64,000 bases of DNA from a virus (IMGVR_UViG_3300042261_000762:32001-96000), one strand, 5' to 3'; counted from the stretch's first letter, positions 12,048 to 61,483 are shown. Numbers and translations are program-made. Notes: generated by a model from the sequence alone, not told the origin.

Positions 12048-13082
12048 ATGATTAAATTATTTGATAATTTCATTAATGAACAATACGAATTAGATCCTTA
12101 CGGTGAAGAAAATTTGGATGATAATGTTAAAGTTAGAATTGCCAAATGTAAAAAAGATTTCAAAATAGGGCGTGATAAGGTAGTGCTGTTTCATAAAGGG
12201 GATGAATATGAAATAGTAGATGATCACGATTGGGACGGATTTATGATTCTCAAAACTCAAATACATGGAACTCCACATAATCACGCAATACCATTAAATA
12301 ACATGTATAAAGATTCTTTTTGGAAACATTTTATTATTAAAGAAAATATTAAATCTGATGTAGATCCTTATGGTGAAGAAAATTGGAATGATTTGGAGCC
12401 AGTTGATGATGTAGTTCTAAGATTTCGAAATTATTATAAATGTGTTGAATGTGGCAATGAATGGGAAGATGAATGGGATTCTACTTGCGATGATGAATGT
12501 CCAAATTGTGGCACTATAATGACGCCATATGAAAGCGAAGATATAAATGAATCTTTTACAGAGGATGATCCTTATGGTGAAGAAATATGGAATGACATTA
12601 AACCGGATCCAATAAATAGAGATACTGAAATAGAAATTGGTGATAAGATATATTATCATTACGATAGAAATAATATCGAACCAGCATTCATGGGTGAAGT
12701 TGAAAGAATAATTAATCACCCTAAGTTTGGATTTGTTGATTATTTAATATCTGGAAAATATTCTCGAGAAATCAGTAAAATGAATTTGATTGGATGTGGG
12801 GCTAGAATAATAAAAAGGACAAATGAGACAATAAATATTGATCCTTATAATGAAGAAAATTGGAAAGATGAAGAGGAATTTAATATTGGTGATGAATTAA
12901 TTTGTAAAGAAGATATAATGACATCTACTGGCAAATATTGGCTGTTTCATCAAGGAAAAACGTATAGTATAATTAGAGTTACACATGATTGGATATTCGT
13001 TCTCACGAAATCTTTAGGACACGAAGTTAATATTCCTTTCACAAGAAAGGGCATTTGGAAAAGTTTCGATAAAAAAAATTAA
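12048..13082 (+). CDS. Modular polyprotein with four DPYGEE tags (small beta modules and a Zn ribbon)
   Basis: Leader MIKLFDNFINE; four DPY(G/N)EE motifs each preceded by an xNE/IKE junction; CVECG...CPNCG module. Confidence 0.7.
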   Translation: MIKLFDNFINEQYELDPYGEENLDDNVKVRIAKCKKDFKIGRDKVVLFHKGDEYEIVDDHDWDGFMILKTQIHGTPHNHAIPLNNMYKDSFWKHFIIKENIKSDVDPYGEENWNDLEPVDDVVLRFRNYYKCVECGNEWEDEWDSTCDDECPNCGTIMTPYESEDINESFTEDDPYGEEIWNDIKPDPINRDTEIEIGDKIYYHYDRNNIEPAFMGEVERIINHPKFGFVDYLISGKYSREISKMNLIGCGARIIKRTNETINIDPYNEENWKDEEEFNIGDELICKEDIMTSTGKYWLFHQGKTYSIIRVTHDWIFVLTKSLGHEVNIPFTRKGIWKSFDKKN

Positions 13083-13121
13083 AAAGTTTTTTATTTCACA
13101 GATATTTCATATCTTTGTAGT

Positions 13122-13355
13122 ATGAAAATTAAGTACTACGGATACGATTGTATTTTTCTTCCAACTGGACATATAGGGAAGATTATGAATGAATTGGATT
13201 CATTCAAATCTTTATGCTGGGACCCGAATAAGAAAGAATCTTATTACAAAGAATATCCTCCTCAATGGGGTATTTATTGGTATGGTGGAGATCAAATACG
13301 ACAAAAAGGAATGCCAAATTATTGGCAAGATAAAGATTTAATTCAGATATTATGA
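13122..13355 (+). CDS. Hypothetical protein
   Basis: 77-aa ORF immediately after a TATCTTTG promoter box. Confidence 0.55.
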   Translation: MKIKYYGYDCIFLPTGHIGKIMNELDSFKSLCWDPNKKESYYKEYPPQWGIYWYGGDQIRQKGMPNYWQDKDLIQIL

Positions 13356-13671
13356 AATCAAATGCTCAGAGATTAGGTGTGTTTTTATCAATTTTAACAA
13401 TAATTGTATGTGGAATTATTGGTGGAATGTTATGGTGCAAGATTTTTAGATTTTTGTAAAGGACACCCATATTGGATTTCTTCATGGATTTTGATTCTTC
13501 TTATTTTTGTAAATCCAGAAACATCTTATGATTTTTATAAAAAAATCAGTTATTTTTTTAGAATAATTTTTTAATTAAGCAAACTTTTTGTAATTTTGTA
13601 GTACAAATTAAGAAATGGAAAAAATTGACATTTTTTGGTTAATATATAACAAAGTATAAAAATTAAATATT

Positions 13672-13891: not shown

Positions 13892-13901
13892 CAAAAGATT
13901 A

Positions 13902-13918: not shown

Positions 13919-13930
13919 GGAATAAATTAT

Positions 13931-17594: not shown

Positions 17595-18428
17595 TTAATC
17601 AATAACTCTAATTGGAGCCTGTTTAATGTGGTCTAATTCTGAGAACGGTGGTTTATAAACATGCCATCTTCCTTTTGGATCTAGTAATACTATTTCCTTC
17701 TTACGATCTCCTGGTTCTTTCATTATAACATCAGATACAAGGAATCTATCCTTGAATTTATATCCTCTTCTCATTTCATTTCCAATCCCTTCAGGAGTCA
17801 TTATTATAGTTTTATTTAGAAGTTGATCTTTTACTAATTTTATTATTTGATTATCAGTCATTCTTCCGAAATCCTGTAGAGAAAACGAAACAGTATTATC
17901 TTCTCCTTGTTCTTCCCATTCTTCTTCACCATACGGATCTTCTTCATCGTGATTAGCTTCTTCTTTGCCATCCTCATTTTCTAAGACTCTTAAAAATCTT
18001 CTACATCTAGCCAATCCCTCTTGTTTTTTATGATTTCTAGCTAATTTATCTGGGTTCCTCATTATATTCTCTATAACTACTTTAATATCTTCCGCTAAAT
18101 CCGCGTAGTTATTTTCGGCATACTCTTGAGCCATGTGATCAACTAGGGTTTTAAGATCTTCGTCAGACATTTTATCCATAGCTTTGTTTGTCAAATCATG
18201 CATATTATAAAGAAGACCTAATTTTTTGGATCTTGCTATAAATATATCTAATTCTCTAAAGACTCCTCTCATCGGTTTCGACCAGAAAAATAATGCTTTT
18301 AATACTCCTAATAAAGCATGTGCTTTAGCAAAACTATATTCGAGTTTGACTCTTCTACCAAATCTTTTAACATCTTTCCAATTTAATTCTTCATTTACAA
18401 ACTCATCGTATCCTTTAATATTGTTCAT
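17595..18428 (-). CDS. Hypothetical protein with targeting-like leader and DPYGEEEW tag
   Basis: MNNIKGYDEFVNE leader; internal EDPYGEEEW. Confidence 0.65.
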   Translation of the reverse strand: MNNIKGYDEFVNEELNWKDVKRFGRRVKLEYSFAKAHALLGVLKALFFWSKPMRGVFRELDIFIARSKKLGLLYNMHDLTNKAMDKMSDEDLKTLVDHMAQEYAENNYADLAEDIKVVIENIMRNPDKLARNHKKQEGLARCRRFLRVLENEDGKEEANHDEEDPYGEEEWEEQGEDNTVSFSLQDFGRMTDNQIIKLVKDQLLNKTIIMTPEGIGNEMRRGYKFKDRFLVSDVIMKEPGDRKKEIVLLDPKGRWHVYKPPFSELDHIKQAPIRVID

Positions 18429-19461: not shown

Positions 19462-21445
19462 ATGTGCATGATAAGAAAATTTGAGTTATTCGAGTCCAAA
19501 GAACCATTTAATCCAAATATACATGAAGGAGATAGAATAATAATAACCAATGGAAAACATAAAAATCAAACTGGAGTGGTAATATTTGTGGAATCTCCAG
19601 AAGATTGTGGATTTATCGTAAACGATGTTGAAGTTAGAATGGATTATACTGAAAAGGAAATAGGGTTTAAATTTTCAGATATCGAAAAATTAGATCCAAT
19701 CGTTAATGTTACATCGGAAGACCCATACGGTGAAGAAGATTATAGAAACGATCCATGGGAAACATTTAGATATATAGAATACATAAGAGAAAACGAACTT
19801 AGGCTTGATGGTAAGCATGGATTCTTTATGTTCTTAAAACTCATAGACGATATGAAGATGCATTTTATTAAGACAAATCATTTTCTTAACGTTGGTAAAT
19901 ATCAATATTTCTTTACAACAGAAGCAATAAGAAGAAAAGATGAATTTATGGCATATTTCAAAGATTCTTTGTCTCTTAAAGTTACTTGTAGTACTGCTTT
20001 AAGAATAAAAGATGAAAGATTATCTTTTTATTTCGGTGTTAAAGGAAATAAATTGGAATATGGATTCCACGACGACATGAAAAGAGATATTTATAAGACT
20101 GGAATATTTGATATAAATACAAGATATTTAAGAAGTTTAAAATCTTATAAATGTTTAGTTCTTATCGAGAATATATTAAAATATTCTAACATATCTAATT
20201 TGAATCTTCTACAAGAAATTAAATCGCATTTTAAAGGGTGGTATGAAGGAAAAGGTAATGTATTAATATTGAATGAAAACATGATTAGAAAAACTCTTAA
20301 AAGAGAAGATATACATGATGATGCTAAAGAATCTGTAGCTTTATTACAAAAGTATGAAAAATGGTGTGAGAAATTTAAGTGGTGTAATAAAGTATATTAT
20401 TATATAGATAATGAGGAAGAGAATGAAGTAGATTTTTATATTAAAATAAAACCTAAAAAGAATGTTGAAGAAGTTTGAACAGTTTAATGATCCTTATGGT
20501 GAAGAAAACGATGATGTAATGTTAGAGCCACCTGAAGATTATTCTGGAGAAAATAGAAATCTGGAAGAAATTCTATCTGTTCTTGATAAAAAAGGATTTA
20601 TAGAGGGCGATGATTTATTCGATGAAGAGTATGATATTATTGATAATAATTTAGTTGATATAATATATAGAGGAGTAAATTTATCAGATAATTGTAATCT
20701 TTTTCAACTCGGAGAACTTATTGTTAGTCTTGATAAAGGAGATGAATATGGCCAAGGTTATTATCTGGCCAAAATAGATAGAATGGAAGAAGAATGATAA
20801 AAAGATATAAAATATTTGAACAAATTGACGATCCTTATGGTGAAGAAGTTGATGAATTCACAGACGGAAAAGACGAATTTGATGTAGAAGATCTTGAATT
20901 TTTAAATGGAAACGCTGAAACAAAATTCACATTAAATTATAAATTGTTTAATGATTGCATTACGTTTGAAGTATTTTACGATGATATGGGATATAATTAT
21001 TATGAAATATATAATAAAAATGAACTCCCTGAGAATATAATAAATTTATTAGAAGAATACAATGATGAAATTAGAATAAAATTACAAGAAGATATAAGAA
21101 ATGGGAGATTTTAAGAAATATAACGAATTTTTATTAACTGAAAGAAAAAAGGATCTTTTTAGTATGGTTCTCAACGATATTAATATAAACGTTGATGAAG
21201 TAGTAAAATTGTTATCAGAAAAATATAATTTTGGATGTTGGTTCTTATACAATAATGAAAACAATATAGCAATTGGATATTATCAAACATCAGACGATAG
21301 TAAAGAAAACGTAAATAAAATAAAAGAATTTTTATTTGAAAATCTTCCATACGTACAAAAAGTCGATGTTTATCCCGATGATAATAGAATGATGCTAAGA
21401 TTTATAGAAATTGGTGATCCTGTGAAGTTTAAATTTTATTTTTGA
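19462..21445 (+). CDS. Four coupled hypothetical genes (19462-20478, 20462-20797, 20794-21114, 21101-21445) with KFxxF(E) leaders, three with DPYGEE
   Basis: MIRKFELFE, MLKKFEQFNDPYGEE, MIKRYKIFEQIDDPYGEE, MGDFKKYNEFLLTE; overlapping stop/start codons. Confidence 0.65.
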
Positions 21446-26007: not shown

Positions 26008-27426
26008 GTGATAACTAAGTTTAAATTATTTGAAGCCAATAAGTACACAGACTATGATCCTGATGGTAACTTTAACGTCGGTGATAGAGTCATTGTTAAT
26101 GGTCATTATGTTAATATAACTTTCAAGGGGGAATCAGGAACAATAATTAATTTTTATGAAGCCGGAGATAATAGTAAAAAAAGGGAGATTTTAATTAGAT
26201 TTGACAGTAGATTTAATACAGATTTAATGTCGGGTGATAACAATGAAGATCCAAGTGGGACTTCATATTATGTCACTAGTGATTTGGTAGAATTGGAAGA
26301 TAAAACTCCTGGGAAAATTAAATGGTATAGTAAGGGTCTTTGGGAGAAATATAATGAAATAGATCCATATAATGAAGAAGACTGGGATGACAAGAATCAA
26401 ATATTTGTAATGTATAAAGGTTTTATGGCGGGCGAAGGACAAAGCTATCATTTACATGTAGTTGTTAATAAACATTATGGTGGAAACACAAACGGTCAAT
26501 ATCTTTGGGATGTAGATAAAAGAGGAATGCCTGATGTTGTTAAATGCGTTTCAGTATATGATCCACGTAGACATAAATTTGCTAGTAGTGAAGAAATAGA
26601 GAAATATTTAGATTTAGAAAAATTAGAGTCGGTATTTAATTATAGAAATGGTGAAGTTAGAGAAAGTGTTAAATGGTATAAAAATGGAAATTTTGAAAAT
26701 GAGCCAGAATGTAAACATGGTAAACATGAATATGTATTAACTCAGAAAGCAACATTTGATAAAAACACATTAAAACCATATTATAAAAATGAAATAAAAT
26801 GTAAAAGATGTGGTAGTGTTAAAAAATATTGTAAGCACGCTTGGTCATATTATGATCTAGTTACACAAGATAGGAATGGAAATAATAAAGTAAAACATTT
26901 GTTAAGATGTACCAAATGTGGAGAGTATGAAACAGATTTATCAAAAATGCCAAAAGAAAAGGGTGATAGTTTTTCGACAAAAATTAAAAAAATAATCAAA
27001 AAGAAATAATTGATAACGAAATTCAAAATATTTGAAAATAACACATTTAGTTTTAAGTTGGATGATATTCTATCACGAAATAGAATGCAAACAAATAGTG
27101 AAGCTGATCCTTACGGTGAAGAAGATTGGAATAATATTAATGAGGATTCTATAAAAAAAGAATTGATGGGAATAGTTTTAAATAGACACGTCGAGTTTAG
27201 AACTTTATCATCAGAAGGACCTTTATATAATAAAAAAGTTATCAAGGGTGTTGTTAAAGATGTTATTGTCAAATGGATACCCCATCATCTTGAATATTGG
27301 ATACTTTTTTTAATTAATGGTAAAAATCATTATGTTTATCCTAATTTAGATATAAAAGTTAAAGAAAATTTAATGGAACACATAGATATAGATCCTTATG
27401 GAGAAGAAAAATGGGATGAAGAATGA
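26008..27426 (+). CDS. Two tagged hypothetical proteins (26008-27009, 27010-27426)
   Basis: MITKFKLFE and MITKFKIFE leaders; DPY(G/N)EE tags; (I/V)KWYxxG motifs; Zn-ribbon repeats in the first. Confidence 0.6.
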
Positions 27427-30400
27427 TAAAGAAATTTAAAATATTTAAGATAAATGAAGGAATGTCATTAAATGACATAATATCCAAAGCTGAGAACAAA
27501 GGATACGGTGGAGATATTAGATATATCAAAAAAGATCTAGAGAATAATTTTCTTAATAAAAGAGTCAGAATATATAAAAAAGGCAAACCTTATGTAGAAA
27601 TAGATGTGGGAGCAATAGTTCGCGAAGGATTCACTTTTTATTTTGAGGCGTTGGAAGTTTTAGATATGGGAAATCGCGGCATGTATTGGAATTCTTATTC
27701 AGAAGCTGAGAAAAATACAATGATTGGTTTAGTAAAAGGACAAGATACTATTTTTATAAGAATAGACAGCGACGATGATATAGATATTATTGGTGAAGCG
27801 GATATTAAAAAGATAACAAGAAAGAAAGAACAGAGAAAATTAAGAGAATTAAAAAAAGACGTAGATCCTTATGGTGAAGAAGATTGGGGAGAAGACACTA
27901 ATAAAGTAATATCTAAATATGATATAAATAGCCCAGATGGACAAGAAAATTTATACAAAAAAGGCGAGGAATATGAAATCGAAACAAACGCAATACACGG
28001 TGATCTTATTGGAGTAAAAACAGAATTGTCATTTGGACAAAAATATGTTCATTATTTTAGAAGAGAAGACTTCAATGATTATTTTGATAGAATAACAGAA
28101 TCAATTGAAAATTTAGATCCTTATGGCGAAGAAAATTGGAATGATGATGAATCTCAGCTTTTTTTGGATTCAATTACTCGATACTTAGATATAAATGCAA
28201 AAATACATAATATTAAAGATAAATGGTATATTTATTTTGAAAAAGATGATGAATTTTATAAAATATGCAACAATGACGCTGGAAAAATACTTTTATATAA
28301 TCGCACAAATCATCATTCAATTGAATTAGTTGATAATGATATAGGTACAAAATTCGATTGGCTAAATATTAGATTAGCTATGCAAAAATTAGAACATAAA
28401 AAATCCTATGCAAAATTTCAAAATGAAAAAAGAGATTATAAAGACGTTGATCCTTATGGTGAAGAAATTTGGGCTGAAGAAGATGAATATAATTGGATTT
28501 ATATTAATGATCCATATGCTGAAGATGCTAATCCAACATTGAATTTATTAGAGCAACAAATAGGTAAATTTATTGTATTTAAGATTGATTGGACAAATGA
28601 ATATAAAGAAGGAGTTTTACAATCTGTTATGATTAATGTGCTTGGAGAAATAGAATTGGAGGTTGATAATCATTTTTATCTATTAGACGAAAGAGAAAGA
28701 ATAGGAGTAGCAAAGGAAAATATAATAACGGAACAGTATGATGAACAAGATCCATATGGTGAGGAAATTTGGAATGAAGATCCAAAATTTCAAATAGGAG
28801 ATAGAGTAGAATTTGCAAAAGATCCACCCAATAGATCATATTATTATCTGATTGAAGAATTTTTCCCGGATGATCGATCGTATAGATTGAGCATACACGA
28901 TAAAAATACCAATGAAAGATTTCCTGGTCATGTTTTGATAGATGAATTTAATTTAAAATTAGAAAATATAAAGGAAGAATTCAAGTGGAGAAATAAAAAC
29001 TATATTTATTATACTCAAACATTTATGGATAATAATAAAGTCAATAGAATAATGGAAAAAATTAGTCCTGAATGGATTACTAATAATCCTGTGGCTTTTG
29101 AAACATACAATAATAAATTATACTTAACTGAGGGACATCATAGATTTGAGGCTTGTTTAAGAAAGAATGATAAAAATTTATTAGAAACTTTATTTAAAAC
29201 TGCTTTATATTATCCAGTGAAAAGAGAACCTAGAAAATTTAAGAAAAAATATATTCCTGAAGATATTAAAATGATAAAAGAAAATAAAGAAATAACAGAC
29301 GAAAAGATAAAAGCAACCATTGATTTTATTTCTAAAACAATAAAAGGCACTGAATGGGAAGGTAAAGTTTATATGGCTGGCGGCGGCGTTAGAGACGAAC
29401 TCATGGGCAGAACTTCAAAAGATATAGATTTACTTATTAATGTACCAGACGGCGGAATAAACTTTGCTATATGGTTTACAAAGAAATTGAAAATATACAG
29501 AGAAGATAAAAATCCTGTTATCTATCCAAGATTTGGAACCGCTAAATTTACTCTAAGAAAACAAAAACATAACGGATTAGATTTATCAGGAATTGATATT
29601 GAATGTGTTATGCCAAGAAAAGAAACTTATACTGAAGGAAGTAGAGATCCAGAGGTAAGTCAAGGCACACTTAAAGATGATGTCGATAGGAGAGATTTTA
29701 CAGTTAATAGTTTGTTGAAAGATTTATCTACTGGGGAAATTCTAGACTTAACAGGAATGGGTAAAGAAGATATTAAAAGGGGAATAGTGAGAACTTCACT
29801 TAATCCTGATGTTATTTTTACTGAAGATCCTTTAAGAATGTTAAGAGCTATAAGATTCACAGTTAAATGTGATTGGGATTTACCTTTATTTATGATTAGA
29901 GCCTTAAAGAAGAACGCAAAACAACTTCAAATAATATCTTCAGAGAGAGTTCAAGATGAATTGAACAAAATGTTATTAACAGGTCATCCTGATAAGGCTA
30001 TAAGATTACTTCAGATAACGGGGTTGAGTAAATATATTTTCCCTGAACTTGATAAACTTATAAAAATGAAACAAAACAAGCATCATAAATATGATGCTAT
30101 GCGTCATTCTTTAGAAGTATTAAAGAATACTCCTCCAGATCTTGTAACAAGATTGTCTGCTTTATTACACGATATAGGTAAAAGTAAAACAAGAGAAATA
30201 ATTGATAATGAAGTTCATTTTTATGAGCATGAAAGGATTGGCGCATTTATGGTAAGGGATATATTAAAAAGGTTGAGATATCCAAAAGAAATAATAAATG
30301 CTGTTGTTATTGCAGTTGAAAATCACATGAAAACAAAACAGTCTGGAGATAAGGGAGATTTAAGTGATAGATCTTTAAGAAAATTGAAACAAGATTTGGG

Positions 30401-30737
30401 TCCACATCTTCAACAAACATTAGATTTAATTCACGCTGATAATATATCACATTCAGAAGAATCTAACATGCCAAATCAAGTAACTAATATCTTAAAAAGA
30501 TTTGCTGATTTGGAAGAAAGAGATAAACAAAAACAAAAACCAAATCCTTTAACTGGCAGCGAAGTAATGAAAATACTTGATATTAAAGAAGGACCAAAGG
30601 GTCCAGAAGATTCTAAAATGCGTCCTATTGTAGGAAAAATATTAAGATTATTGGGCGATATGTATTTAGATGACCCACATATGAGTAAAGAAGAATTAAC
30701 TGAAATAGTCAAAAAATCATACGAAGAATATAAATGA
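27423..30737 (+). CDS. cca: Polyprotein: DPYGEE-tagged modules, ParB-like module and C-terminal CCA-adding tRNA nucleotidyltransferase/HD domain
   Basis: GGGVRDELMGRTSKDIDL, RRDFTVNSL, EDPLRMLRAIRF, ERVQDEL, LLHDIGK in the last ~480 aa; LTEGHHRF; four DPYGEExW in the first half. Confidence 0.88.
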   Translation: MIKKFKIFKINEGMSLNDIISKAENKGYGGDIRYIKKDLENNFLNKRVRIYKKGKPYVEIDVGAIVREGFTFYFEALEVLDMGNRGMYWNSYSEAEKNTMIGLVKGQDTIFIRIDSDDDIDIIGEADIKKITRKKEQRKLRELKKDVDPYGEEDWGEDTNKVISKYDINSPDGQENLYKKGEEYEIETNAIHGDLIGVKTELSFGQKYVHYFRREDFNDYFDRITESIENLDPYGEENWNDDESQLFLDSITRYLDINAKIHNIKDKWYIYFEKDDEFYKICNNDAGKILLYNRTNHHSIELVDNDIGTKFDWLNIRLAMQKLEHKKSYAKFQNEKRDYKDVDPYGEEIWAEEDEYNWIYINDPYAEDANPTLNLLEQQIGKFIVFKIDWTNEYKEGVLQSVMINVLGEIELEVDNHFYLLDERERIGVAKENIITEQYDEQDPYGEEIWNEDPKFQIGDRVEFAKDPPNRSYYYLIEEFFPDDRSYRLSIHDKNTNERFPGHVLIDEFNLKLENIKEEFKWRNKNYIYYTQTFMDNNKVNRIMEKISPEWITNNPVAFETYNNKLYLTEGHHRFEACLRKNDKNLLETLFKTALYYPVKREPRKFKKKYIPEDIKMIKENKEITDEKIKATIDFISKTIKGTEWEGKVYMAGGGVRDELMGRTSKDIDLLINVPDGGINFAIWFTKKLKIYREDKNPVIYPRFGTAKFTLRKQKHNGLDLSGIDIECVMPRKETYTEGSRDPEVSQGTLKDDVDRRDFTVNSLLKDLSTGEILDLTGMGKEDIKRGIVRTSLNPDVIFTEDPLRMLRAIRFTVKCDWDLPLFMIRALKKNAKQLQIISSERVQDELNKMLLTGHPDKAIRLLQITGLSKYIFPELDKLIKMKQNKHHKYDAMRHSLEVLKNTPPDLVTRLSALLHDIGKSKTREIIDNEVHFYEHERIGAFMVRDILKRLRYPKEIINAVVIAVENHMKTKQSGDKGDLSDRSLRKLKQDLGPHLQQTLDLIHADNISHSEESNMPNQVTNILKRFADLEERDKQKQKPNPLTGSEVMKILDIKEGPKGPEDSKMRPIVGKILRLLGDMYLDDPHMSKEELTEIVKKSYEEYK

Positions 30738-31636
30738 AAGAATCTCTAATTACATATAAAGATTATAAAAGAAAAAGAAATTTCGCTATATGTGTTCATG
30801 ATGTGGTCGAATACGATTATTTAATGGATTTTTTAGAAGACAATAATTTTATATGGGGTGGATCAAGAACTCCCGTTAGGGATTTAAATCTCGCTAGATA
30901 TATTGGAGTTGAAGGAATATATATTTATATATCTTCATATAAAACTATTTCTTGGTCTGGATCATATCCCAAATCTGAAAAAGTTGTACAATTTAATGAT
31001 TTTTTTGTTAGAAGCAATATGAAAAAAATAGAAAGACCTGATCAAGATCCTTATAATGAAGAAGATTGGGGATATGAAACAAATGAACAATCTGACGCGG
31101 AACAATATGCAAAATTTCAAGATTATTATGGTAGATTAAAGGCTAAAAAAGAAGATGACGATTTATTTCCAATATTTAAAGTTGGAGATGAAGTAACTCC
31201 TGAAGATCCATATGGTGAAGAAGATTGGTCTGATAATTTTTATGAAAAAATGACAATTAAATTTTCAAGATTTTCTAAAATACAAGAAAATTCAAAGGAT
31301 GAAGAAATAATTTATATGAAAAATTTGTATGAAGAATATGATTATGTGTCTGATATTATAGAATATCTTAAACCGAAAATAATTGGTCATGAAATTAAAA
31401 TTCAAAAAAGAGATGAGAAAGGAGGGTGGAAAGATTTTATATTTGGATTAAATATTAATTATTATATTGAAAATATTTCAGGACATTATAATGATGATTT
31501 GAAAATAACATTATTAGTTAAACCAAAAGAAATTGGATGGGTTATGATTGATGAAAATTGTATATTAATAATAAAACCAATAGTTCGGGTTTTTTCTAAA
31601 AGCGATCCTTATGGTGAAGAAGTTTGGGAAATGTAA
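30734..31636 (+). CDS. Hypothetical protein with three DPY(G/N)EExW tags
   Basis: QDPYNEEDW, EDPYGEEDW, C-terminal SDPYGEEVWEM. Confidence 0.6.
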   Translation: MKESLITYKDYKRKRNFAICVHDVVEYDYLMDFLEDNNFIWGGSRTPVRDLNLARYIGVEGIYIYISSYKTISWSGSYPKSEKVVQFNDFFVRSNMKKIERPDQDPYNEEDWGYETNEQSDAEQYAKFQDYYGRLKAKKEDDDLFPIFKVGDEVTPEDPYGEEDWSDNFYEKMTIKFSRFSKIQENSKDEEIIYMKNLYEEYDYVSDIIEYLKPKIIGHEIKIQKRDEKGGWKDFIFGLNINYYIENISGHYNDDLKITLLVKPKEIGWVMIDENCILIIKPIVRVFSKSDPYGEEVWEM

Positions 31637-40699: not shown

Positions 40700-41058
40700 A
40701 ATTCTATACTTCCTATCCCCTCATTCCTATCTATACATATTGCTGTAGCCGAATTAGACCCGTCTGATTTCTTATCATTTATAACTATTCTCTCACCTCT
40801 ACCTAATCCCATAACAAGTTGATCATATACAACACCAGATTCAGCTAATTGTTTAATAGTAAAATCTCTTAAACATTCCCTTCTTCCTGTAGTTATAACA
40901 ACATAATAACCAGCCACTTCCCATTCGTCTAATTTTTCTTTAACTCCAGGTAAAAGAACTGTTTCATTATCTTTCAAGGATGACGAATGTCCTCCGTGAT
41001 GTTTTAATAAACATCCGTCTATGTCTAGAAAAATTACTTTACTACTATAATCTATCAT
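40696..41058 (-). CDS. Small HAD-family phosphatase
   Basis: FLDIDG, ITTGR, YDQLVMG, INDK. Confidence 0.8.
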   Translation of the reverse strand: MIDYSSKVIFLDIDGCLLKHHGGHSSSLKDNETVLLPGVKEKLDEWEVAGYYVVITTGRRECLRDFTIKQLAESGVVYDQLVMGLGRGERIVINDKKSDGSNSATAICIDRNEGIGSIEL

Positions 41059-42191
41059 TTATCTTTAAATTCTTTTTTATCTACTGATTGATAAAACTTA
41101 GAAAAATCGAAATATTTATCAAATACATTTCTAATTTCCTCATAAGTCAGAGTTGGTAATATTTTCTCTAAAGAGAACTTATCCATCTCTATAAATTTAT
41201 ATCCATTATTATGTAATAAGATGTTTTCTTTTTCGTATTTATTTTGATAGTATTTCTTAGTTATTTCAAATCTTTCCCTTGTTAAATATTTATCTGGATT
41301 ATCTAATATATTCTTTATTAATTCCTGAACTTTATCTACATTCTTATTTGAAGTTACAGTCTCAAATATAGCTATGGCAGAATTATTAGTTACTTCTCTA
41401 TTATAACAATGAACAAAATACACAAGCCCGTGCTTCTCTCTTATTTCTTGATAAAGAGGAGATTTCAATCCGCCACCTAACATTCTTGTTATGAATTGAA
41501 GATGTGGGAAATGATCATGTATAATTGGTGATAAGTTAATAATAGAAGATTTATCTTTATAACTATTTCCTTTTTCATATATGAAATCGTTATCTACATT
41601 AAGAACTAACTCTTTATCTTCATAGGTTCTATTATCAAATTCCACTTTAGAGAAGAATTCTTCTGTCTTTTTATCTGTGCTTTTTGATACGTCTACAATC
41701 ATAGTTGGTTTTCTGTATTGTAGTTCAAAGAAATCCTGACAATCTTTTAATGTTAGACCTTCTAAATCTTCTAGTAATCCTATTGCTTCATAATAACCAT
41801 ATAATTTTCTAAAAAGATTTTGACCGTGAGCGTCTGATTGTTTATTGAAAGAATCTTTATATTCTTCTATAACAATTTTTTTCTCATTTTGAAATTGCTC
41901 TTCAGTGATATTGAAATTCTGAAGATGTTCGAAGAATTTCTTTTTCCATCTTTTAACATTTTTATCCATTCCAGTCATATAAAATACAATCTCTTTGTCT
42001 GAAGTATATGCATTCCAATGTATAGCATCTCTTTCGAAATCTTCCATTAGACTATCTATTCCTTTACATACAAGGTGTTCCATTATGTGTGAAATACCAT
42101 AGATTCCTTTATGTTCATTCATTGTGCTTCCATAATAAGCAATGTAAAACCCAGATAAGGGTGTTGGTGATTTGATTTTCTTATAATTCAT
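41055..42191 (-). CDS. M16 (insulinase-family) zinc peptidase
   Basis: GISHIMEH (inverted HxxEH), NAYTS, EKKIVIEE, SPLYQEIREKHGLVY. Confidence 0.9.
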   Translation of the reverse strand: MNYKKIKSPTPLSGFYIAYYGSTMNEHKGIYGISHIMEHLVCKGIDSLMEDFERDAIHWNAYTSDKEIVFYMTGMDKNVKRWKKKFFEHLQNFNITEEQFQNEKKIVIEEYKDSFNKQSDAHGQNLFRKLYGYYEAIGLLEDLEGLTLKDCQDFFELQYRKPTMIVDVSKSTDKKTEEFFSKVEFDNRTYEDKELVLNVDNDFIYEKGNSYKDKSSIINLSPIIHDHFPHLQFITRMLGGGLKSPLYQEIREKHGLVYFVHCYNREVTNNSAIAIFETVTSNKNVDKVQELIKNILDNPDKYLTRERFEITKKYYQNKYEKENILLHNNGYKFIEMDKFSLEKILPTLTYEEIRNVFDKYFDFSKFYQSVDKKEFKDK

Positions 42192-44529: not shown

Positions 44530-45516
44530 TTAATTTTTTATTTTTTCGTTTAATTCTAATAATCGATTAAACATATTAATTCTGAATATATCAGATATTC
44601 TTTTTATAAATTTATCATATTTGATATTATCAACATAATGTTGGAACATTCCAATGTCCAATTTGTCTTCTGGTATTCTTGACATTCTGTTCATATTTTT
44701 TTCAAGCCATTTGACAGAATCTAACTCTATATTCTTTTTTTGTGATGTTACTGTATCATATAAATGGGCGCTTTCAGCCATCTTAAATTTCTCATAAGAC
44801 TCTTTTAACTCTTCAACATATGATGTATGATAATATTCGCCGCCATCGGTATATGAAAAATATAAAATTTGAGAATCTTTCAAGAATCTTCTCAAATTAT
44901 CATTATCTGGATGTTGAATCCATGTATTTTCATTTTCCGCTGGCTTTACTATCATCGTTATTGGATCTAAAGAAGAGATATCAATGATGTTTTTTTGTTT
45001 ATCATCGTATATTACTTCATAAGCCAGATACCCGTCTATTAATAATACTTTAATTGTATGATAAAAGCTAATATCTTCAACATCTACAATTTTTCTTATT
45101 GGGTCATATTTCGGATGACTATAGAATCCTTTTATGCTATCCCATATATCATCTGTTACAATATCAATAAAATTTTTAATTTCGTCTTTTATTGATAATT
45201 GCCTTAATGTTTTTCTTTTTTCTAAATAAGTTCTATCTCTATAATCGATTGAAGATTTTCTATTATAAGATTCTTCTATTATGGATATTTTTGTTTTGGA
45301 TTGTAAAGCGTTAATTCTTTTATTTATAGTTTTACCTAATTTGTCTAGATATTTTTCTTCATCCCCATAATCTTTTACGACTGTTTGAGTGATGCCCACA
45401 TCCCATCCGTTTTCTTTTAGATATTCATTTATTAAATAAATTATTGTCGATTTTCCGGTATTAGACCAACCTTTAACAACGATCGACAGTTCGTTGATTT
45501 CTTTCTCTTTTTTCAT
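44530..45516 (-). CDS. P-loop segment fused to an internally deleted gp20-like portal protein
   Basis: GWSNTGKST; then LIDGYLAYEVIYDDKQKNI..LDPITM, SYVEEL..Y..K..E, VKWL...MSRIP, IKYDKFIKRI, matching the order of gp20 blocks (recalled). Confidence 0.65.
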   Translation of the reverse strand: MKKEKEINELSIVVKGWSNTGKSTIIYLINEYLKENGWDVGITQTVVKDYGDEEKYLDKLGKTINKRINALQSKTKISIIEESYNRKSSIDYRDRTYLEKRKTLRQLSIKDEIKNFIDIVTDDIWDSIKGFYSHPKYDPIRKIVDVEDISFYHTIKVLLIDGYLAYEVIYDDKQKNIIDISSLDPITMIVKPAENENTWIQHPDNDNLRRFLKDSQILYFSYTDGGEYYHTSYVEELKESYEKFKMAESAHLYDTVTSQKKNIELDSVKWLEKNMNRMSRIPEDKLDIGMFQHYVDNIKYDKFIKRISDIFRINMFNRLLELNEKIKN

Positions 45517-48536: not shown

Positions 48537-49046
48537 ATGACGGATAAAGAACAAAAATTATTAAATTCATTATATCAATTTTATTCTACTGAAGAAAAAA
48601 AACCTGTTGCTGGAAATTTTGAATTCTCTGAAGGAGATAATGTTATTTATAACAACATGGGAGAAAGACATGCCGGAGAAGTTGGTGTTTATAAAGGTAG
48701 AAGACAAGAAGATGGTAAAATTAAAATAAAATACGCTAATGTTATTTTTTGGGCTAATCCAAAATATGTGGCTCCAGCCAATACAGTAAAAGATTTATCT
48801 AGATTATATAGAATATTAGATCAAATGGTACAAGATGGAGATCTATCAAGATCAGTTGTGGATAAATTTAAAAGAGAAGTAGAACAAAAAACTCAAAGGA
48901 AAAAATTAGATCCATATAACGAAGAATCTTGGGATGACGATGAACCTGAGCAAATTATAAAACCACCTAGACCAAATCCTCCTCAACAAAGAAGACAAAC
49001 CGCTGACCCATGCGCCAGAGGCGGATATACTAGAGGAGGTTGTTAA
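48537..49046 (+). CDS. Hypothetical protein with SH3/KOW-like module and DPYNEESW tag
   Basis: FSEGDNVIY..GEVGVY; LDPYNEESW; Pro/Gln-rich tail. Confidence 0.55.
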   Translation: MTDKEQKLLNSLYQFYSTEEKKPVAGNFEFSEGDNVIYNNMGERHAGEVGVYKGRRQEDGKIKIKYANVIFWANPKYVAPANTVKDLSRLYRILDQMVQDGDLSRSVVDKFKREVEQKTQRKKLDPYNEESWDDDEPEQIIKPPRPNPPQQRRQTADPCARGGYTRGGC

Positions 49047-50709: not shown

Positions 50710-51751
50710 TTAAAACCAACCTCCGAAAAAAGAAGTCTGTTGTTTTGGTGGTTTAAGACAAGTAGATTTTGTCCACATATTAAAATAACCAGTTATTAAT
50801 CCAAGTGATGTGTTTGGTACTCTAATTAAATAATCACATTTATCAGTATTTGGAGAATCACAGAGGTTGTGATGTTTGTAACTTACATGATCTATTTTTA
50901 TTACAGTTACTTGTTTACCGTGATGTAAATTCCACATATAAGGAAAACAATTAATATCTGGAACATATGTATATACTCCATTTACCTTAATTTTTTCTAC
51001 TGATTTTTGATTTTGTTTTCCTGGTCCAGTTCCGTTTTTTATTGTTAAAGTCCCGTCTTTATCATCAATACTCCAATTTCCTGGTTTATGCCAAGGGCCA
51101 TTTGGATCTTTAGATTTCTGCTCTGGTTTAGCGACCGGTTTAGGCTCTGTCTTTTCTTTTTTCTTAAAACATTTGGTCCATGCTATAGTGATATTTCTTT
51201 GACATTCATTGGCTTTTTTATATCTTTTGGCTTTTGGATACAAAGATTCTATTTCTTTCATCAAAGGCAACGCCATATCAACAAGAAATCTAAGTCTATC
51301 TTCCATAGCTTTATTTGAATTTGAATCTGAATCTGTATTAATAAAAGCTGGCATGCCATCCACGTCTTCAGCATTCTTATCTATTGATTCTGATAAAAAC
51401 TTTTTATAATTTTTATTAATTTTCCCAGTCTTCTTCTCCATATGGATCTTCTTTTGTTATTTTTCTTTTTCCCTGAGGATAATAAGGCACATCTTTGCCA
51501 CTCATCATCATACCCATTCTTATAGCACTTACATAAGAAAATATATTAGCTAATCCCATCTGACTAGCTGTTGTTTGATAGATTTCCGTCCCGTCTTTTA
51601 TTTTTAATACGAACATGTTGTTTTCTGTTACCATTGATAAATGTGGATATATTTTCCAAACCGCGGCCATTATTCCTTTTATGTCGTCAATAGTAACATC
51701 ATCGCCATGTTTCATTTGTTCTTTTAATATATCTTGAAATCTTTTAACCAT
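50710..51751 (-). CDS. Two hypothetical late proteins (50710-51441; 51416-51751 with C-terminal DPYGEEDW)
   Basis: Leaders NKNYKKFLSE and MVKRFQDILKE. Confidence 0.55.
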
Positions 51752-52338: not shown

Positions 52339-53039
52339 TTATCTTTCTAATTTTCCTACAAAAATTAAAGATCTGTCAACTTGAGCTTGCATGTAAGGAT
52401 CTTCTTCTCCCCTGTTTCCATTATTAAAATTTATATTTATAAATTCATCTATGTTTTCACCTATTACTTTAGTCCTGGTATCTACAATATTCGGTCCTAT
52501 TACGTTTTGATTAATATTCCAAATTATATAAACATATCCTCTAATAAAATGGTTTTCATAATTTCTTGTGCATAAATATATGTTATTCATACTTGTTATT
52601 TCCTGTTCTTCTACAGGATTCCATATTTCCTCACCATATGGATCTATTTTATTAAATTTCTCAAATGTCTTTATTATGCTTTTTTCCATAATCCGTCAAA
52701 TTCTCCTTTTTTTAGTTGAGATCCGTCTGCTGTTACTAACCTATAATCGCCTGGTTTATTATTATCTATTAATAATTTAGCTCTTTCAAGATTAAATTTT
52801 AAAACTCTTTCGTCTCTATACTTAATGTTTTTTCCACCAGACATCGCTGTAAATTGGTTAAACTTACCATCTCTCATTTGCGTTAGAAAAAATTTTTTAC
52901 CATGTTCCACTTTAAATATAGCCCATCCTCTTTCATACCAAGGCAAATCATCTTCAAAATCTTCTTCAGTATTATCTACTTCATCGAAATTACCTTTTTT
53001 ATACCATTTGATAGAAAATTCTTCAAACATCTTAACCAT
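52339..53039 (-). CDS. Two tagged hypothetical proteins (52339-52689; 52674-53039)
   Basis: IIKTFEKFNKIDPYGEEIW; MVKMFEEFSIKWYKKGNF. Confidence 0.55.
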
Positions 53040-54502: not shown

Positions 54503-55293
54503 TTATTGTTTTATTGTTTTTAATTTATTAAGCCCCCAGAATATATCAACTATTCTACATTTAATAACACCGTAATATGGTTGTGCATTCCAACTTGTTG
54601 ATTTCTGCGGTTTTTGTAACAAAGCAGTTACCCAGATTATATCTCCTCTTTTAACTTCTTTTACTCCGAGATCAGCGTTAAAAGTAGGTCCGCCTGATAT
54701 GTTTTCTTCTAATTTAGCTATTCTATCTTTATCGGTTATGACTGAAGTTACCTGAACTATCTCAACTGGATCCGTAATTTTTTCTATATCGCCATTCTCC
54801 AGTTCTCTTAAAGCAATAATATCCGATGAAAGTTGATCAAATTCTTTTTTTCTTTTGAACTCTTTTACTTTTCCTTTTTTATATTCTTCAAAGTCTTTAG
54901 TTATATCAGACATTATTTTCTTTAATATTTTTTAACTTACCAATCTTCCTCTCCGTAAGGATCTACACTTCTCATTCTATCTTTTAATTGTTGTTTCTTG
55001 ATCATCCACTTATCAAAATCTTTTTTTTTAAGAAAATTGTTATGCCATTGAGTTCCTATTAGTATTCCGGATTCTATATCTATTATATCAAGAAGACCGT
55101 CTGATCTAGAATCAGTAACTCTATATGCATTACCTGTAGTTAGATAACGATTTGTGAATGTGCTATAAATAATATCTCCAACATCAAATGGTTGTTTTGG
55201 ACCTTTTCCTTTAGGATGTTTCATTTCAGGAGCCCTGTGTGGAAGATTTGTCTCATATATGTATCTTTCAAATGATCTTATATTATTAAGCAT
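54503..55293 (-). CDS. Two hypothetical proteins (54503-54913; 54937-55293 with C-terminal DPYGEEDW)
   Basis: MSDITKDFEEYK; MLNNIRSFERYIYE...VDPYGEEDW*. Confidence 0.55.
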
Positions 55294-57417: not shown

Positions 57418-57569
57418 CTTTTATTTTTTATAATCCAATTATATCCTAAATATTTATAATTATTTTTAATTATACTTCTGAAATTAATTTTTAATTTTTT
57501 TCTTAATTCGTAAATAGAATTATATATTTTTATTATAATGTGTATATGTATTGTTTATCTTTCATTCTA

Positions 57570-60500
57570 TTAAAAAAGCCAGTTTTCTTCTGGTTTGTAA
57601 TCATTCATATAATCGTTTATAATATCTTTTAATTTTTTATCTTCTCTTTCATCCCAATTTTCTTCGCTATATGGGTCTATATCAGATTCTTCTTCTACAC
57701 TTTCCCATACTTCTTCACCATAAGGATCTTCTGGATGTTCTTCCATCCATCTTAATCTTTTTATTTCAAATTCTTCTAATTTTCTTTTATATTTTTCTAT
57801 TGTTTCTTTTGGAGCTTTTAATAGAAGTTTTTCTCCAACTATGTGACAAAATGGTTCTTCGTTGTCTATAAAACACACCTTGAATCTTCTAGGCCCGTGT
57901 TGGTATCCACGATAAGGTAAAGGAACTTCATCTATTATTTTAACAATACCTTTTTCTAGATGATTAAAATTTCCATTATAGATTGCATAATCTCCAACGT
58001 TTAAATCTCCTAATTGTTCATTTACAAAACTGTTAAAATTTAACATTAATTTTTTTATTTTTTTCTATAATTCAATTCATAATAATCTATATATCCTGTA
58101 CCATTACATTCTGGACAATCAACTTCTTCGCCTGTGTCTTGGTCTGTCCATCCACCTTCTCCTCCACATTCATCACACATTTCATCATCTCTGTCACCAC
58201 ATAATTGCTTTAATTCTTCGTCTGTATAATTTAAAAGAGACTGTCTTATTAAATCACTTATGAAGTGTCTATAATCATAAGGATTATTAATTAGATCCTC
58301 TATTATATCAGAAATCATTCTATCTCTATCTAATTCCATTGGTTTTTCATTCCAATTTTCTTCTCCATAAGGGTCTAATATATTATCCATGTCTTTTTTG
58401 TTTTCGAATGCAAAATTATGAAAATTTTTTATATTTTCCATCAAAATTTTTATTTTTCTTCCCAATTTTCTTCTCCATAAGGATCATTAATATATTTTGG
58501 AGGATCTATTTCTTTATTCATAATTAAAGCAAGAATATCATCTAATCTTTGATTAATATTTTTTTCCATAAGTTCTAAACGTCTTATAACTCTTCTTGCA
58601 CCAGAGTAAGCATCACAAGACTCATCTATTTTTTCAAATTCATCTATTATTTCATTAAAAGATTTCACGTTCCTATATATTAAAATTATTTTTTAATTAA
58701 TTATATATCCCAACCCGGATCTTTTAAACACATATCACATATCTTCTCTACAATCAGGACAAACTTGGTCTAACATTAAAGCATATGGATAACGTTCTCC
58801 ACATATTCTACAATGAGTATAATCAAGTTCTCTATCTCTATCATCTAAATAATCCAATATCCCTCTATCAAATTCTTCCTTTTCCTTATCTTCGTTCCAG
58901 TTTTCTTCACCATAAGGATCTAAATCATTTTGATTTTCGAATATCTTAAATTTATTATCATTCAAATATTTTCTTTTATTATAGTCGTGAATTTTAAAAA
59001 CTTCTTCCCAACTTATTATTCCTTCTTCTGGTCTTGATATCTCATCCGTTTTAATTTTTTTGAAAATATCAATCTCTTTAATAACAAAATCTTCCATTAT
59101 TTTATCTCTCAATGTATCTTTTTCAAGACTATTAAAATATCTAGTTTTTTTCTTTCTATTATTTTCTATATTTTTATTTTTTTTAATCTTTTTAATTCTA
59201 GCTCTTCTGCTACCAGCAAAATATGGATCTTCTATTACGTCACTAGCAACACCAATAACATCTGGACGTCTGAATGTTGCAGAATCAGGACCTTTATTGA
59301 AAGAAGGACCGGCATTTTGTTGATCGCTATGACCCATAGAACCATATCCTGTTACATTTCTATAATCAGAATACTCGTTTAGTGGACTTTGACACATTAT
59401 AAAATCTTCTTTTGAAATTTTAAATATTTTCAATATATCTGAAAATTTTAAGTCTTGAAAATCCCCTTCTCCTTGCCAATCGCATACATATACTTTTATT
59501 CCAATTTTATCATCCATTACTAATTTCTTTTCTTCTTCGTTTAATGGAATAAAATCCCAGTCTGGAAGAGGGAAAAATTCAAATGAATATCCTTTTTCAA
59601 AACATTCACCAACAGCCATTAAATAATCACATGCTTTTGTTCCTTGAAATCTAAATTGAATTATACCTCCTTCTTTATTAACCGGATTGGCGTCGTTGTG
59701 ATAAGAAGAAAAATAATAAAACCCACCGTCTTTTAATGCTACTTTTTGAATATCAAATCCGTTTAATTCTTCCCATATTTCTTCACCATATGGGTCTATT
59801 TTATTTCTATCTTGTTCGAATAATTTGAATTTTTTTATCATAAAATTAATTTTTTTTAAAATCTGTTATCTTCTCTAAAATATATTTCTTCTCTATGCAT
59901 TAGCCAATCGAAGTGTTCACTACACAAATAAGTTGTTAAATTATGTCTCATTTCAAATTCTCTATATTGTTCTTCTTCAAAATGTGGGTTCCACGGATTT
60001 TCTTCTCCTACTTTATGACTTGCCATATTTTGACAACCAACTATCATACATTTAACTCCTTTAACAGAACCTGGTAATTTATGTTCATCCCCCCAGTTTT
60101 CTTCCCCGTAAGGATCTATTTTATTTTTACCTCTTTTATATCTCTTATTCTCATCAATCTTATTTTCAATTCTTTTCTTCATTTTATTTATGAGTTCGTC
60201 TAATTGAAGAATAAAATTTTCTTTGGATGTTATGTTTGTTGTTTCTGTTTTTGTTTCATTCCCTCTTTCGTGTGATAATTGTAATGTATTTTGCCCGTGT
60301 AATTCATAGAAATCGAAATTAAATCCCTTAAATTTAAATTCTATGGTTCTACCTATCTTTGGATAATCTGGATCAGCATCCATGTATGTAAAATTCTTAA
60401 CTCCTCTTATATTTTTTATAAAATCGATGTAATCGTCAAATGGAAATTCATTCCAATCTTCCTCACCGTAAGGATCGATATTAGAGTCGATTTGTTCAAA

Positions 60501-61345
60501 TATTTTAAATTTTCTTATCACTTAATTCTTTTTAATTTTTCTATTATTGGATCTATTCTTCTTTTAAGACCATATAAAATACTAGTCCCTTCAAAAGCGT
60601 CATTCCAAACATGGGCTATATATTTAATTCTAGCAATAGTTGCTTCGTCAATTTGACCATCACTCTTTTTCAAGAAAGATAAAATTTTCTTTTCTATTGT
60701 ATCAGGTTTTGTATCTTTTAATAATTCAATAACTTCAGACATATTTTGTAATGTATCTAATAGATCAATAAATCCACTAACATCAGTGTGTACTGATTCT
60801 TGCGCCCATTCACCTTCTACATAATTATATTTAAATTTTTTATTTTTATCTTTTTCTCCCCATTCTTCTTCACCATAAGGATCATGTGCTTGAATTTTTT
60901 TTCTTTCTTCTTCTTGTTCATCTTTATATTTTCTTGTAGCGACTGGATCTAATTCCAACATGTGTTCTGGAACTCCTTTTAATGTTCTTATAGTATCAGT
61001 TCTAGTTATAGAATCCTTTTTACATCGTCCTTCTTCATCATAAATTAGATGCATAATTCCACTATAAACATCTAAAAATTCTATAGCATATGTATTTGTT
61101 TTAGATTTTGCAAATGGAATTTCAATATAACGATCTCTATCTATTCTATCGCCGATTCCTTGAAAAAAACTTCTACCTTTTTTTCTAGTTCCATATGAAA
61201 TTTTACATAATTTACCATCAAGTTCTTTATCGTTAGGATTATGATATATACAAATATCACCGCCATGAAATTTATGTTTATGAAAATGGTGTTCCAAACC
61301 CATTATTTTTACTTCTTCGTTATATTTCTGAAATTTCTTTATCAT
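57570..61345 (-). CDS. Six tagged hypothetical genes (57570-58046, 58055-58441, 58450-58668, 58735-59841, 59856-60521, 60518-61345)
   Basis: All have KFxxF-type leaders and one or two DPY(G/S)EExW tags; several carry Zn ribbons. Confidence 0.65.
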
Positions 61346-61483
61346 AAATTTTCTGACCAATCTTCTTCACCATAAGGATCAAAGATTTTATTTTTATTTT
61401 TTTATTTCTTCTAATTTTGTTCTTTGTTCATCGATGGCATTTTTCTTTTTTCTAAATATATTAAATTCTTCAAATGTTCTCAT
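61342..61483 (-). pseudogene. Small tagged gene frameshifted in an A7 run
   Basis: MRTFEEFNIF...LEEIKK* continues in another frame as NKIFDPYGEEDWSENL*. Removing one A at 61397-61403 restores a single ORF coupled to the ATG at 61345. Confidence 0.6.

Follow-up and report, generated by a model that had tools for sequence, protein, structure and literature searches.

Why do some two dozen seemingly unrelated proteins of one phage carry the same short peptide? This question is raised by IMGVR_UViG_3300042261_000762:32001-96000, a 64,000-nt stretch of viral DNA (hereafter, the window) in which the peptide motif DPYGEExW (hereafter, the tag) recurs on both strands. An earlier note, made from the sequence of the window, had reported about 38 copies on roughly 25 unrelated proteins and proposed that the tag is a linear motif that docks many clients on one receptor. 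The window, with a G+C content of 29.5%, is a portion of a 104-kb viral contig and comes from a relative of the largest known bacteriophage. Over most of its length the contig is syntenic with LR756501, an uncultured phage of 735 kb, at kb 124-230; the conserved proteins of the two share 55-86% identity.

A six-frame regular-expression search of the window for DP[YF]xx[ED]xW agreed with the reported count. It revealed 34 strict copies, and in four more the W is replaced (at 12093, ..NL; 19720, ..DY; 20489, ..ND; 20830, ..VD), which gives 38 copies on 24 open reading frames (ORFs) plus one 19-codon orphan frame. The analytical chance expectation for the whole contig is 1.4e-4 copies, and 2000 residue shuffles of the proteome contained zero copies. 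The positions named earlier are also correct, whether C-terminal (38970-40699, 51416, 54937, 58450), behind an N-terminal leader (20462, 20794, 58735, 59856), or between modules (12048, 27423). The carriers are unrelated at the BLAST level: once the tag and the first 12 residues were masked, the 29 tagged proteins of the contig fell into 29 unlinked groups. Gene calls were made by greedy longest ORF, and protein counts are therefore approximate. As we detail below, selection acts on the tag as a peptide. Our preferred reading, held with middling confidence, is that the tag is a lineage-specific docking or address label for one common reader that co-evolved in the 735-kb lineage and is probably linked to the prohead.

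The tag is conserved as a peptide

Apart from two orphans, every copy lies in the coding frame of its ORF and tracks gene orientation on both strands; the out-of-frame or intergenic copies that the earlier note had associated with a DNA element do not occur. The orphan in the window is as follows.

61357..61483 (-): tag 61357-61380 as an orphan, in a frame of 19 codons shifted +1 from a leader ORF of 29 codons (ATG at 61483)

This leader ORF begins MRTFEEFNIF and ends AAAAAAA-TAA, and the +1 frame one base on reads KNKIFDPYGEEDWSENL-stop. Judging from the sequence, a 46-residue protein of leader plus tag alone would result from +1 frameshifting at the stop or from an error in the homopolymer. 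The second orphan, at contig position ~19348 (-12652 in window numbering, outside the window), reads KGQIISQVDPYGEENWNI-stop with the full C-terminal context in a 38-codon frame that has no ATG, and probably remains from a carrier gene that was lost.

Third codon positions had been described as varying freely, which is not the case: the tag favours CCT and GGT beyond their genome-wide usage, and in LR756501 also TAC. Codon context accounts for most of this bias. Outside the tags of LR756501, CCT makes up 54% of the codons for P before Y, TAC 68% of those for Y before G, and GGT 64% of those for G before E, and the DNA identity among 24-nt tag units (82%) is as predicted from the peptide and codon context. 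In orthologue pairs the tag stays identical at the same place while the flanks and whole modules diverge, and decayed copies are only rare and occasional. Because the codon bias of the tag is mostly explained by the genome's own codon-context preferences, it is the peptide and not the DNA that is conserved, and this part of the earlier claim stands. That the 24-nt unit is a DNA or RNA signal with the peptide as its by-product has a close to negligible chance of being right; the excess of CCT and GGT over the genome speaks for it, whereas the confinement to coding frames, the variation at synonymous sites and the same bias in ordinary P-Y, Y-G and G-E pairs elsewhere in the genome all speak against it. 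A DNA repeat or mobile element was likewise rejected on the frame, strand and codon-context tests.

A gene-splitting cassette, in which a tag, a stop, a start and a leader follow each other, was also rejected, as only 3 of 40 same-strand downstream genes fit the leader pattern (about 10 after starts were corrected by eye). So was an alternative genetic code behind the "C-terminal" tags: the stop after the tag is TAA in 33 of 41 cases, as in the genome, and recoding adds little coding density.

Tag anatomy and distribution across phages

The core of the tag comprises ten residues, [ILV]-DPYGEE-x-W-[DEN]-[DEN], and the C-terminal form extends upstream to about 18 residues ([KR][RK][VI][FYI][ST]x[LE]-DPYGEExW-xx-stop). 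In the 735-kb genome LR756501 there are 103 exact DPYGEExW copies, 102 of them on 88 of 1080 proteins by simple ORF calls, and a reversed control pattern had 0 matches; the tagged share of the proteome is ~9% there and ~18% in the contig. Of these 102 tags, 41 are C-terminal, 42 are internal, and the other 19 come after a separate leader, at most 35 residues from the start, with similar proportions on loci from IMG/VR. The stop falls exactly two residues past the W in 32 of the 41 C-terminal tags of LR756501 and in 41 of 67 on the IMG/VR loci. In total, IMG/VR provided at least 113 stretches on several dozen large contigs, with 223 further unique copies.

The tag was absent, even by a looser pattern, from Lak-C1, from the 635-642-kb phages LR756502, LR745206 and LR756504, and from phage G. 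The Lak phages are distant relatives, with ~28% identity in the CCA-adding enzyme. A degenerate pattern searched in 185,579 prokaryote genomes (596 Gb) had only 72 scattered single matches without enrichment in any taxon, on which basis mimicry of a host motif was rejected. Given the tag-less huge relatives and these scattered prokaryote matches, the tag arose in the LR756501 lineage and is not a motif of the hosts. A literature search for DPYGEE returned only unrelated eukaryotic and yeast peptide matches.

The 642-kb phage LR756502 has a different tag, with ~36-55 small orphan proteins ending in [IL]R[DN]xKLxx[LI]GI-stop. Of the 29 matches to this pattern, 26 lie within three residues of a stop, and LR756501 has 0. 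This phage group thus seems to use tags across the proteome as a code that differs between lineages. Carriers of the LR756502 tag (loci L236-L268) cluster near both genome ends. This sister-lineage tag is new in this analysis, as are the enrichment of fragment paralogues, the leader statistics, the codon-context control and the M16 test.

Tagged genes with fragment copies of head and tail proteins

LR756501 encodes a portal (PF07230), an S77 prohead protease with thirteen acidic 14-residue repeats, a gp23-type major capsid protein (MCP) and a sheath protein. Fragment paralogues of these four are enriched among the tagged proteins of the contig and LR756501 (12 of 118, versus 11 of 1138 untagged; odds ratio 11.6, p 1.5e-7), and among 115 large proteins the MCP has the most short-fragment copies. 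The window has three partial matches to PF07068 (gp23), all inside small tagged genes of a five-gene cluster (38970-40699). Each gene of the cluster joins a C-terminal tag to a short stretch copied from a head protein; the copied parts are a protease-domain end with Gly/Ser, the MCP propeptide (residues 1-43), two different MCP C-terminal strand copies, and two MCP N-arm copies.

38970..39506 (-): 178 residues, MCP N-arm segment (TIGLDLVxVKP) twice, each followed by a tag (39201-39224 and C-terminal 38979-39002); partial PF07068 match at profile positions 5-49, 59% identity to MCP residues 81-124, family P0009-P0015
39481..39855 (-): 124 residues, copy of the MCP C-terminal strand (ISEATWAPRM; 14 of 18 residues identical to MCP 537-554) with C-terminal tag 39490-39513
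39857..40111 (-): 84 residues, copy of the MCP C-terminal segment (PF07068 profile positions 313-356) with C-terminal tag 39866-39889 (DPFGEEDW); homologue of the tagged B145891
40115..40309 (-): 64 residues, copy of the putative MCP propeptide (43% identity to MCP 1-43, E 1e-8) with C-terminal tag 40124-40147 (DPFGEEDW)
40313..40699 (-): 128 residues, copy of the prohead-protease domain end (YDIVADPGFSKAKM), Gly/Ser-rich stretch, C-terminal tag 40322-40345

In metagenome relatives a single chain contains a protease strand, the MCP propeptide, a tag, the MCP N-arm and another tag. The AlphaFold2 (AF2) model of 38970..39506 has no globular fold (mean predicted local distance difference test score, pLDDT, 48.7), and a chain predicted to be non-globular fits a string of linear contact segments. 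We take the MCP N-arm segment to be the apparent counterpart of the Gol region of T4 gp23. That region is highly conserved and binds EF-Tu (PMC3014915).

The lineage retains many partial paralogues of the portal, MCP, protease and sheath. The following one is untagged, and its LR756501 orthologue (B142020) is in the same syntenic place.

44530..45516 (-): portal fragment paralogue, 328 residues, 46% identity to portal residues 82-268

The protease gene of LR756501, at 73913-76336 (+), encodes the S77 domain fused to the ~thirteen acidic repeats (YIAENLDKSIxYSE), to a stretch rich in Gln and Ala, and to an SH3-like domain, and is probably a protease-scaffold fusion. Three of its 14-residue repeats are copied behind a collagen-like Gly/Ser stretch in a tagged LR756501 protein (619760-620383).

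An N-terminal leader that resembles a capsid targeting sequence

Many proteins of these phages start with a leader of the form M-x(1-9)-[FY]xx[FY]-x(0-2)-E (~11% in LR756501, 15% in the contig, 10% in LR756502), compared with 2.4% at internal Met. The leaders are 9-13 residues long, small residues follow the terminal E, and 82 of 111 leaders have I, L, V or F at P3. In LR756501, a stricter leader, M[IVLM]xx[FY]xx[FY], is strongly associated with the tag, as 25 of the 47 proteins with it are tagged versus 64 of 963 others (odds ratio 16, p 5e-16). Leaders of the same type (MKHLKKYKIFE|S) occur in the tag-less LR756502. In the window, M-x-[KR]-x-[FY]-x-x-[FY]-x-(N)-E leaders are found on tagged and untagged proteins alike, e.g., those at 27423, 31772(-), 22232(-), 22948(-), 4480 and 53032(-). 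From an alignment with T4 gp23, the MCP of LR756501 would presumably be cut after ..HQMNE, a leader-type site. The leader length and hydrophobic-x-E end match the T4 capsid targeting sequence (CTS), MKTYQEFIAE (PMC8442874), which ends in (L/I)-x-E (PMC5694885).

Tags at the joints of shuffled modules

The remaining tagged ORFs of the window are as follows.

12048..13082 (+): 344 residues; N-leader MIKLFDNFINE, tag variant 12093-12116 (DPYGEENL), module, tag 12363-12386, Zn ribbon, tag 12567-12590, SH3-like module, tag 12840-12863, SH3-like module
17595..18428 (-): 277 residues, internal tag 17916-17939 (DPYGEEEW) in an acidic linker
19462..20478 (+): 338 residues, N-terminal KOW/SH3-like module plus tag variant 19720-19743 (DPYGEEDY), then the body
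20462..20797 (+): 111 residues, leader MLKKFEQFN with tag variant 20489-20512 (DPYGEEND) directly behind it
20794..21114 (+): 106 residues, leader MIKRYKIFE, then tag variant 20830-20853 (DPYGEEVD)
26227..27009 (+): 260 residues, tag 26362-26385 (DPYNEEDW)
27085..27426 (+): 113 residues, N-terminal tag 27106-27129 and C-terminal tag 27391-27414; its stop overlaps the start of the next gene
27423..30737 (+): CCA-adding tRNA nucleotidyltransferase, 1104 residues, leader MIKKFKIFKINE, Pfam PolyA_pol, RNA-binding and HD domains; N-terminal extension of ~450 residues in which each of four small modules ends in a tag (27864-27887, 28116-28139, 28449-28472, 28749-28772)
30734..31636 (+): 300 residues, tags 31046-31069 and 31205-31228, C-terminal tag 31604-31627
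48537..49046 (+): 169 residues, tag 48909-48932 (DPYNEESW), at the same place in the LR756501 orthologue
51416..51751 (-): 111 residues, C-terminal tag 51425-51448
52339..52689 (-): 116 residues, leader, then tag 52621-52644
54937..55293 (-): 118 residues, leader, SH3-like body, tag at the extreme C-terminus (54940-54963)
57570..58046 (-): 158 residues, leader MLNFNSFVNE, SH3-like body, adjacent tags 57705-57728 and 57654-57677
58055..58441 (-): 128 residues, leader, tag 58352-58375 (conserved in the LR756501 orthologue), Zn-ribbon body
58450..58569 (-): 39-residue ORF, terminal tag 58462-58485
58735..59841 (-): 368 residues, leader MIKKFKLFE, tag 59773-59796, body, internal leader-like KFKIFE, tag 58897-58920, Zn ribbon
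59856..60521 (-): 221 residues, GTG start, leader-like KFKIFEQ, tag 60453-60476, internal tag 60093-60116
60518..61345 (-): 275 residues, internal tag 60860-60883

In the AF2 model of 12048-13082 all four tags have pLDDT below 50, while the Zn ribbon and SH3-like modules reach 60-87. Docking of the tag in cis on an SH3-like module, which is often eight residues downstream, was rejected on these values, which come from a shallow model and are weak evidence. Relatives of this protein (P0002-P0007) have the modules in common but reordered, along with leucine-rich repeat (LRR) or GNAT domains, and a tag at each junction. In one relative an internal IIKKFKIFEQ leader directly follows a tag and, as read from the sequence, marks a gene fusion. 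Two window carriers have a module and tag fused ahead of bodies that are stand-alone and untagged in LR756501: residues 104-338 of 19462..20478 share 65% identity with a 242-residue protein there (B165347), and the C-terminal body of 60518..61345 shares 68% with one of 104 residues (B130487). The tags of the CCA-adding enzyme align with those of its LR756501 orthologue, whereas the intervening modules differ. Tagged bodies generally diverge faster (median identity to LR756501 40% versus 60% for untagged, p 0.008), and tagged arrays occupy conserved syntenic slots with reshuffled contents, while the tag is unchanged between genomes whose conserved enzymes share only ~60% identity.

Since every tag lies in one codon phase at a module boundary, the tags act as in-frame joints for module shuffling, fusion and splitting. 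This is an observed side effect and is insufficient as an explanation. It could be the whole story if the tag were a soluble, flexible, acidic phase-0 connector spread by module shuffling without a dedicated reader, which we consider quite unlikely. The reordering of SH3-like, Zn-ribbon, LRR and GNAT modules with tags at all joins, the fusions and fissions at tags, the reshuffled arrays and the predicted flexibility of the tag are what such a neutral linker would leave behind. Against it, D, P, Y, G, E, E and W are invariant in more than 300 copies across genomes with saturated synonymous sites, about 40% of the tags are terminal and join nothing, the identity of the 24-nt unit is no more than peptide and codon context predict, and decayed copies are rare.

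Possible tag cleavage or turnover and the phage M16 peptidase

A gene near the head-fragment cluster bears on the main rival to a docking label, i.e., that the tag is a processing signal recognised by a protease or transpeptidase (the phage M16 or S77 enzyme, or one of the host).

41055..42191 (-): M16 zinc peptidase with an intact HxxEH (HIMEH), one gene upstream of the tagged head-fragment cluster

The gene at 42196-43188 (-) lies upstream of it. The peptidase is of the pitrilysin/PqqF type and shares 77.5% identity with its LR756501 copy, which is likewise syntenic with the tagged cluster. In 50,697 phage records such a protein was found only in the 635-735-kb phages and, weakly, as gp2 of phage G.

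As a processing signal, the tag would let the enzyme split multi-module proteins and trim leader-plus-tag or tag tails, and natural C-terminal tags would match the ends left by cutting. Several features suit this: tags lie at every module boundary of the bead-on-string proteins, whose modules also occur fused or as separate genes; seven of the eight positions are near-invariant, like enzyme recognition sequences; the C-terminal form stops at a fixed W+2; the leaders end in hydrophobic-x-E, a T4-protease-type site; and an M16 enzyme that looks active from its motif is one gene from the tagged cluster in both phages. We nevertheless judge processing to be unlikely. The tag misfits the T4 (L/I)-x-E rule, as only about one-fifth of copies combine a hydrophobic position 7 with W and D/E behind it, and about 40% of tags are followed by just two residues, so that a cut after the tag releases nothing. 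The M16 peptidase has homologues of 41-50% identity in the three tag-less 635-642-kb phages LR756502, LR745206 and LR756504, with no tagged genes beside them, and because of this presence it is not a specific reader of the tag. G-E-E within the tag formally fits the (S/A/G)-x-E cleavage rule of phiKZ; the protease here is of the T4/S77 type, whose rule the tag misfits.

The tag could also be a degron or chaperone handle that delivers its carriers to a host or phage protease or chaperone (e.g., the phage DnaJ) for timed turnover or folding, with the structural-protein fragments as short-lived assembly regulators. Exposure of the tag at the termini of small non-globular proteins would be in keeping with this, copies of interface segments could cap unassembled subunits, and both DnaJ and the M16 peptidase are phage-encoded. 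We regard it as very unlikely, given that the tag is unlike any known degron, that DnaJ and M16 are also present in tag-less phages, and that internal copies lie in a working enzyme, the CCA-adding enzyme.

A proposed docking label and its possible reader

What remains of the earlier proposal is a putative docking motif whose peptide-level conservation, flexibility, invariance, many unrelated and fast-evolving carriers, and absence from prokaryote genomes beyond scattered matches are borne out; docking to one co-evolving reader would be the most economical mechanism for them. The prohead or its scaffold, also named in that proposal as a candidate receptor, gains indirect support from the enrichment of head-protein fragments and from the linkage to the T4-CTS-like leader, and we hold it tentatively as the place of action; a host protein or a phage compartment would be alternative receptors. 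Fast-evolving small modules and enzymes, many with a CTS-like leader that ends in a hydrophobic-x-Glu protease-type site, may be gathered or held in the head through the tag. The mosaic mini-proteins of prohead contact segments (protease end, MCP propeptide, N-arm, C-terminal strands, portal, sheath) would then link the tag network to shell and core. A wider proposal, which is rather doubtful at present, is that huge phages run lineage-specific addressing codes, DPYGEExW in the 735-kb lineage and R[DN]xKLxxLGI at the carboxyl end in the 642-kb sister, and that the 735-kb code with its mosaic adaptors loads about a hundred enzymes and fast-evolving, bead-on-string effectors into the head for ejection into the host with the DNA. 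Candidates for such cargo would be the CCA-adding enzyme and, in relatives, the LRR and GNAT proteins.

Several observations weigh against a prohead-linked docking label. The true capsid protein, portal, protease and sheath are all untagged, structural-protein fragments make up only ~10% of the tagged proteins, and untagged fragments are equally many. In LR756501, 64 of 89 tagged proteins have no recognisable leader. Five C-tagged proteins of LR756501 (196539-196790, 505983-506309, 560179-560463, 697593-697817 and 697818-698165, all -) start with a transmembrane helix followed by basic residues; their tag would by this topology sit at the cytoplasmic face of the membrane, and a membrane-tethered docking site therefore fits them better than packaged cargo. 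The near-invariance of seven of eight positions is tighter than in most docking motifs, and an enzyme recognition site would be equally suited. A reader of the tag was not found by the M16 comparison, by searching the PDB, in which no chain matched the sequence of the 22-residue C-tag, or by a Pfam scan, in which no peptide-binding domain was detected in eight untagged window proteins that are present in LR756501 and have no LR756502 homologue, or in the products of 36244-36642 and 38548-38967. The 14-residue repeats of the protease protein are an unlikely receptor as well, and were rejected, because they are acidic like the tag.

Other genes in the window

The window also encodes EF-G, glutamine synthetase, an IMPDH/GMP-reductase-family protein, thymidine kinase, DnaJ and a class I Glu/Gln-type tRNA synthetase, in addition to the M16 peptidase and the CCA-adding enzyme. 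The first five were named in the earlier note (with the third as GuaC) as lacking the tag, which they do, and Pfam confirms their identities.

24026-25036: DnaJ
13821-17150 (+): array of ten tRNA genes (Glu x3, Gln x3, Met x2, Ile(TAT) x2)
15114-15635, 33072-33539 and 33779-34273 (+): three small proteins with an N-terminal signal peptide that ends ..AQ or ..GQ

We take these signal-peptide ends to be in the style of Bacteroidota, which fits the host proposed for the phage group.

Implications and comparison with known systems

If the tag is an address label, the carriers are the clients of a single machine in the largest phages known, with ~90 proteins per genome that are mostly orphans, and hundreds of unannotatable genes become a testable set. 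The association of the tag with head fragments and with a T4-CTS-like leader points to an arsenal of packaged or ejected proteins far larger than that of any studied phage. A ten-residue tag that is usable at either end or internally would also be a handle for loading foreign proteins into capsids, and the different tag of the sister lineage suggests that such codes are a general, undescribed feature of huge phages.

The likeness to the tail of SSB suggested by the earlier note is weak. SSB is one hub protein with a hydrophobic/aromatic carboxyl end and many partners, whereas the tag has ~90 carriers, is non-terminal in 60% of cases with internal copies, keeps its W at -3 and ends in D, E, N or K. 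Closer in kind, if the tag is a docking label, are the endocytic adaptor motifs DPF, DPW, NPF and WxxF-acidic and the Glu-rich C-terminal E-block of Legionella Dot/Icm effectors, which are short motifs in disordered regions of unrelated, fast-evolving proteins, often in several copies and with one hub reader; these belong to unrelated organisms and machinery and are far more degenerate. The His boxes of T-even tail-fibre adhesins, which are in-frame recombination joints, are likewise conserved short peptide motifs at module borders with in-frame swapping. They are found in one gene family and bind metal structurally, while the tag is proteome-wide and often terminal.

Among head-targeting systems, SPN3US and phiKZ have a diverged extra copy of the prohead protease, and N-terminal propeptides bring many proteins into the head (PMC5694885). 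Those are whole-domain paralogues without a common tag, in contrast to the short segments here in mini-proteins that end in a shared peptide. In T4, the CTS is a short portable peptide that sends unrelated proteins (internal proteins IPI-III, Alt) to the prohead core, in a phage with the same type of portal, S77 protease and gp23-type capsid (PMC8442874; PMC5694885). It sits at the very N-terminus, is about 10-20 residues long, and closely resembles the co-occurring N-leader (M-I-K-K-F-K-I-F-E, with hydrophobic-x-E after 9-13 residues). The tag itself differs from it in being acidic-aromatic, in occurring also at C-termini and internally with up to four copies per protein, in lacking an (L/I)-x-E cut site in most copies, and in its ~90 carriers per genome versus a handful.

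Encapsulin targeting peptides are found at C-termini, at N-termini, or between domains with a C-terminal repeat, and the Family 1 consensus is SDGSLGIGSLKRS, of the type (S/D)GSLGIGSLK (PMC8346489). Like the tag they are short and on flexible ends, and they load cargo into a shell of the HK97 fold. They have no sequence likeness to DPYGEExW and serve one to few cargo types, and their shell binding is proven, whereas for the tag such binding is hypothetical. The C-tag of LR756502, ..KLxxLGI-stop, is somewhat nearer to the encapsulin peptides in sequence.

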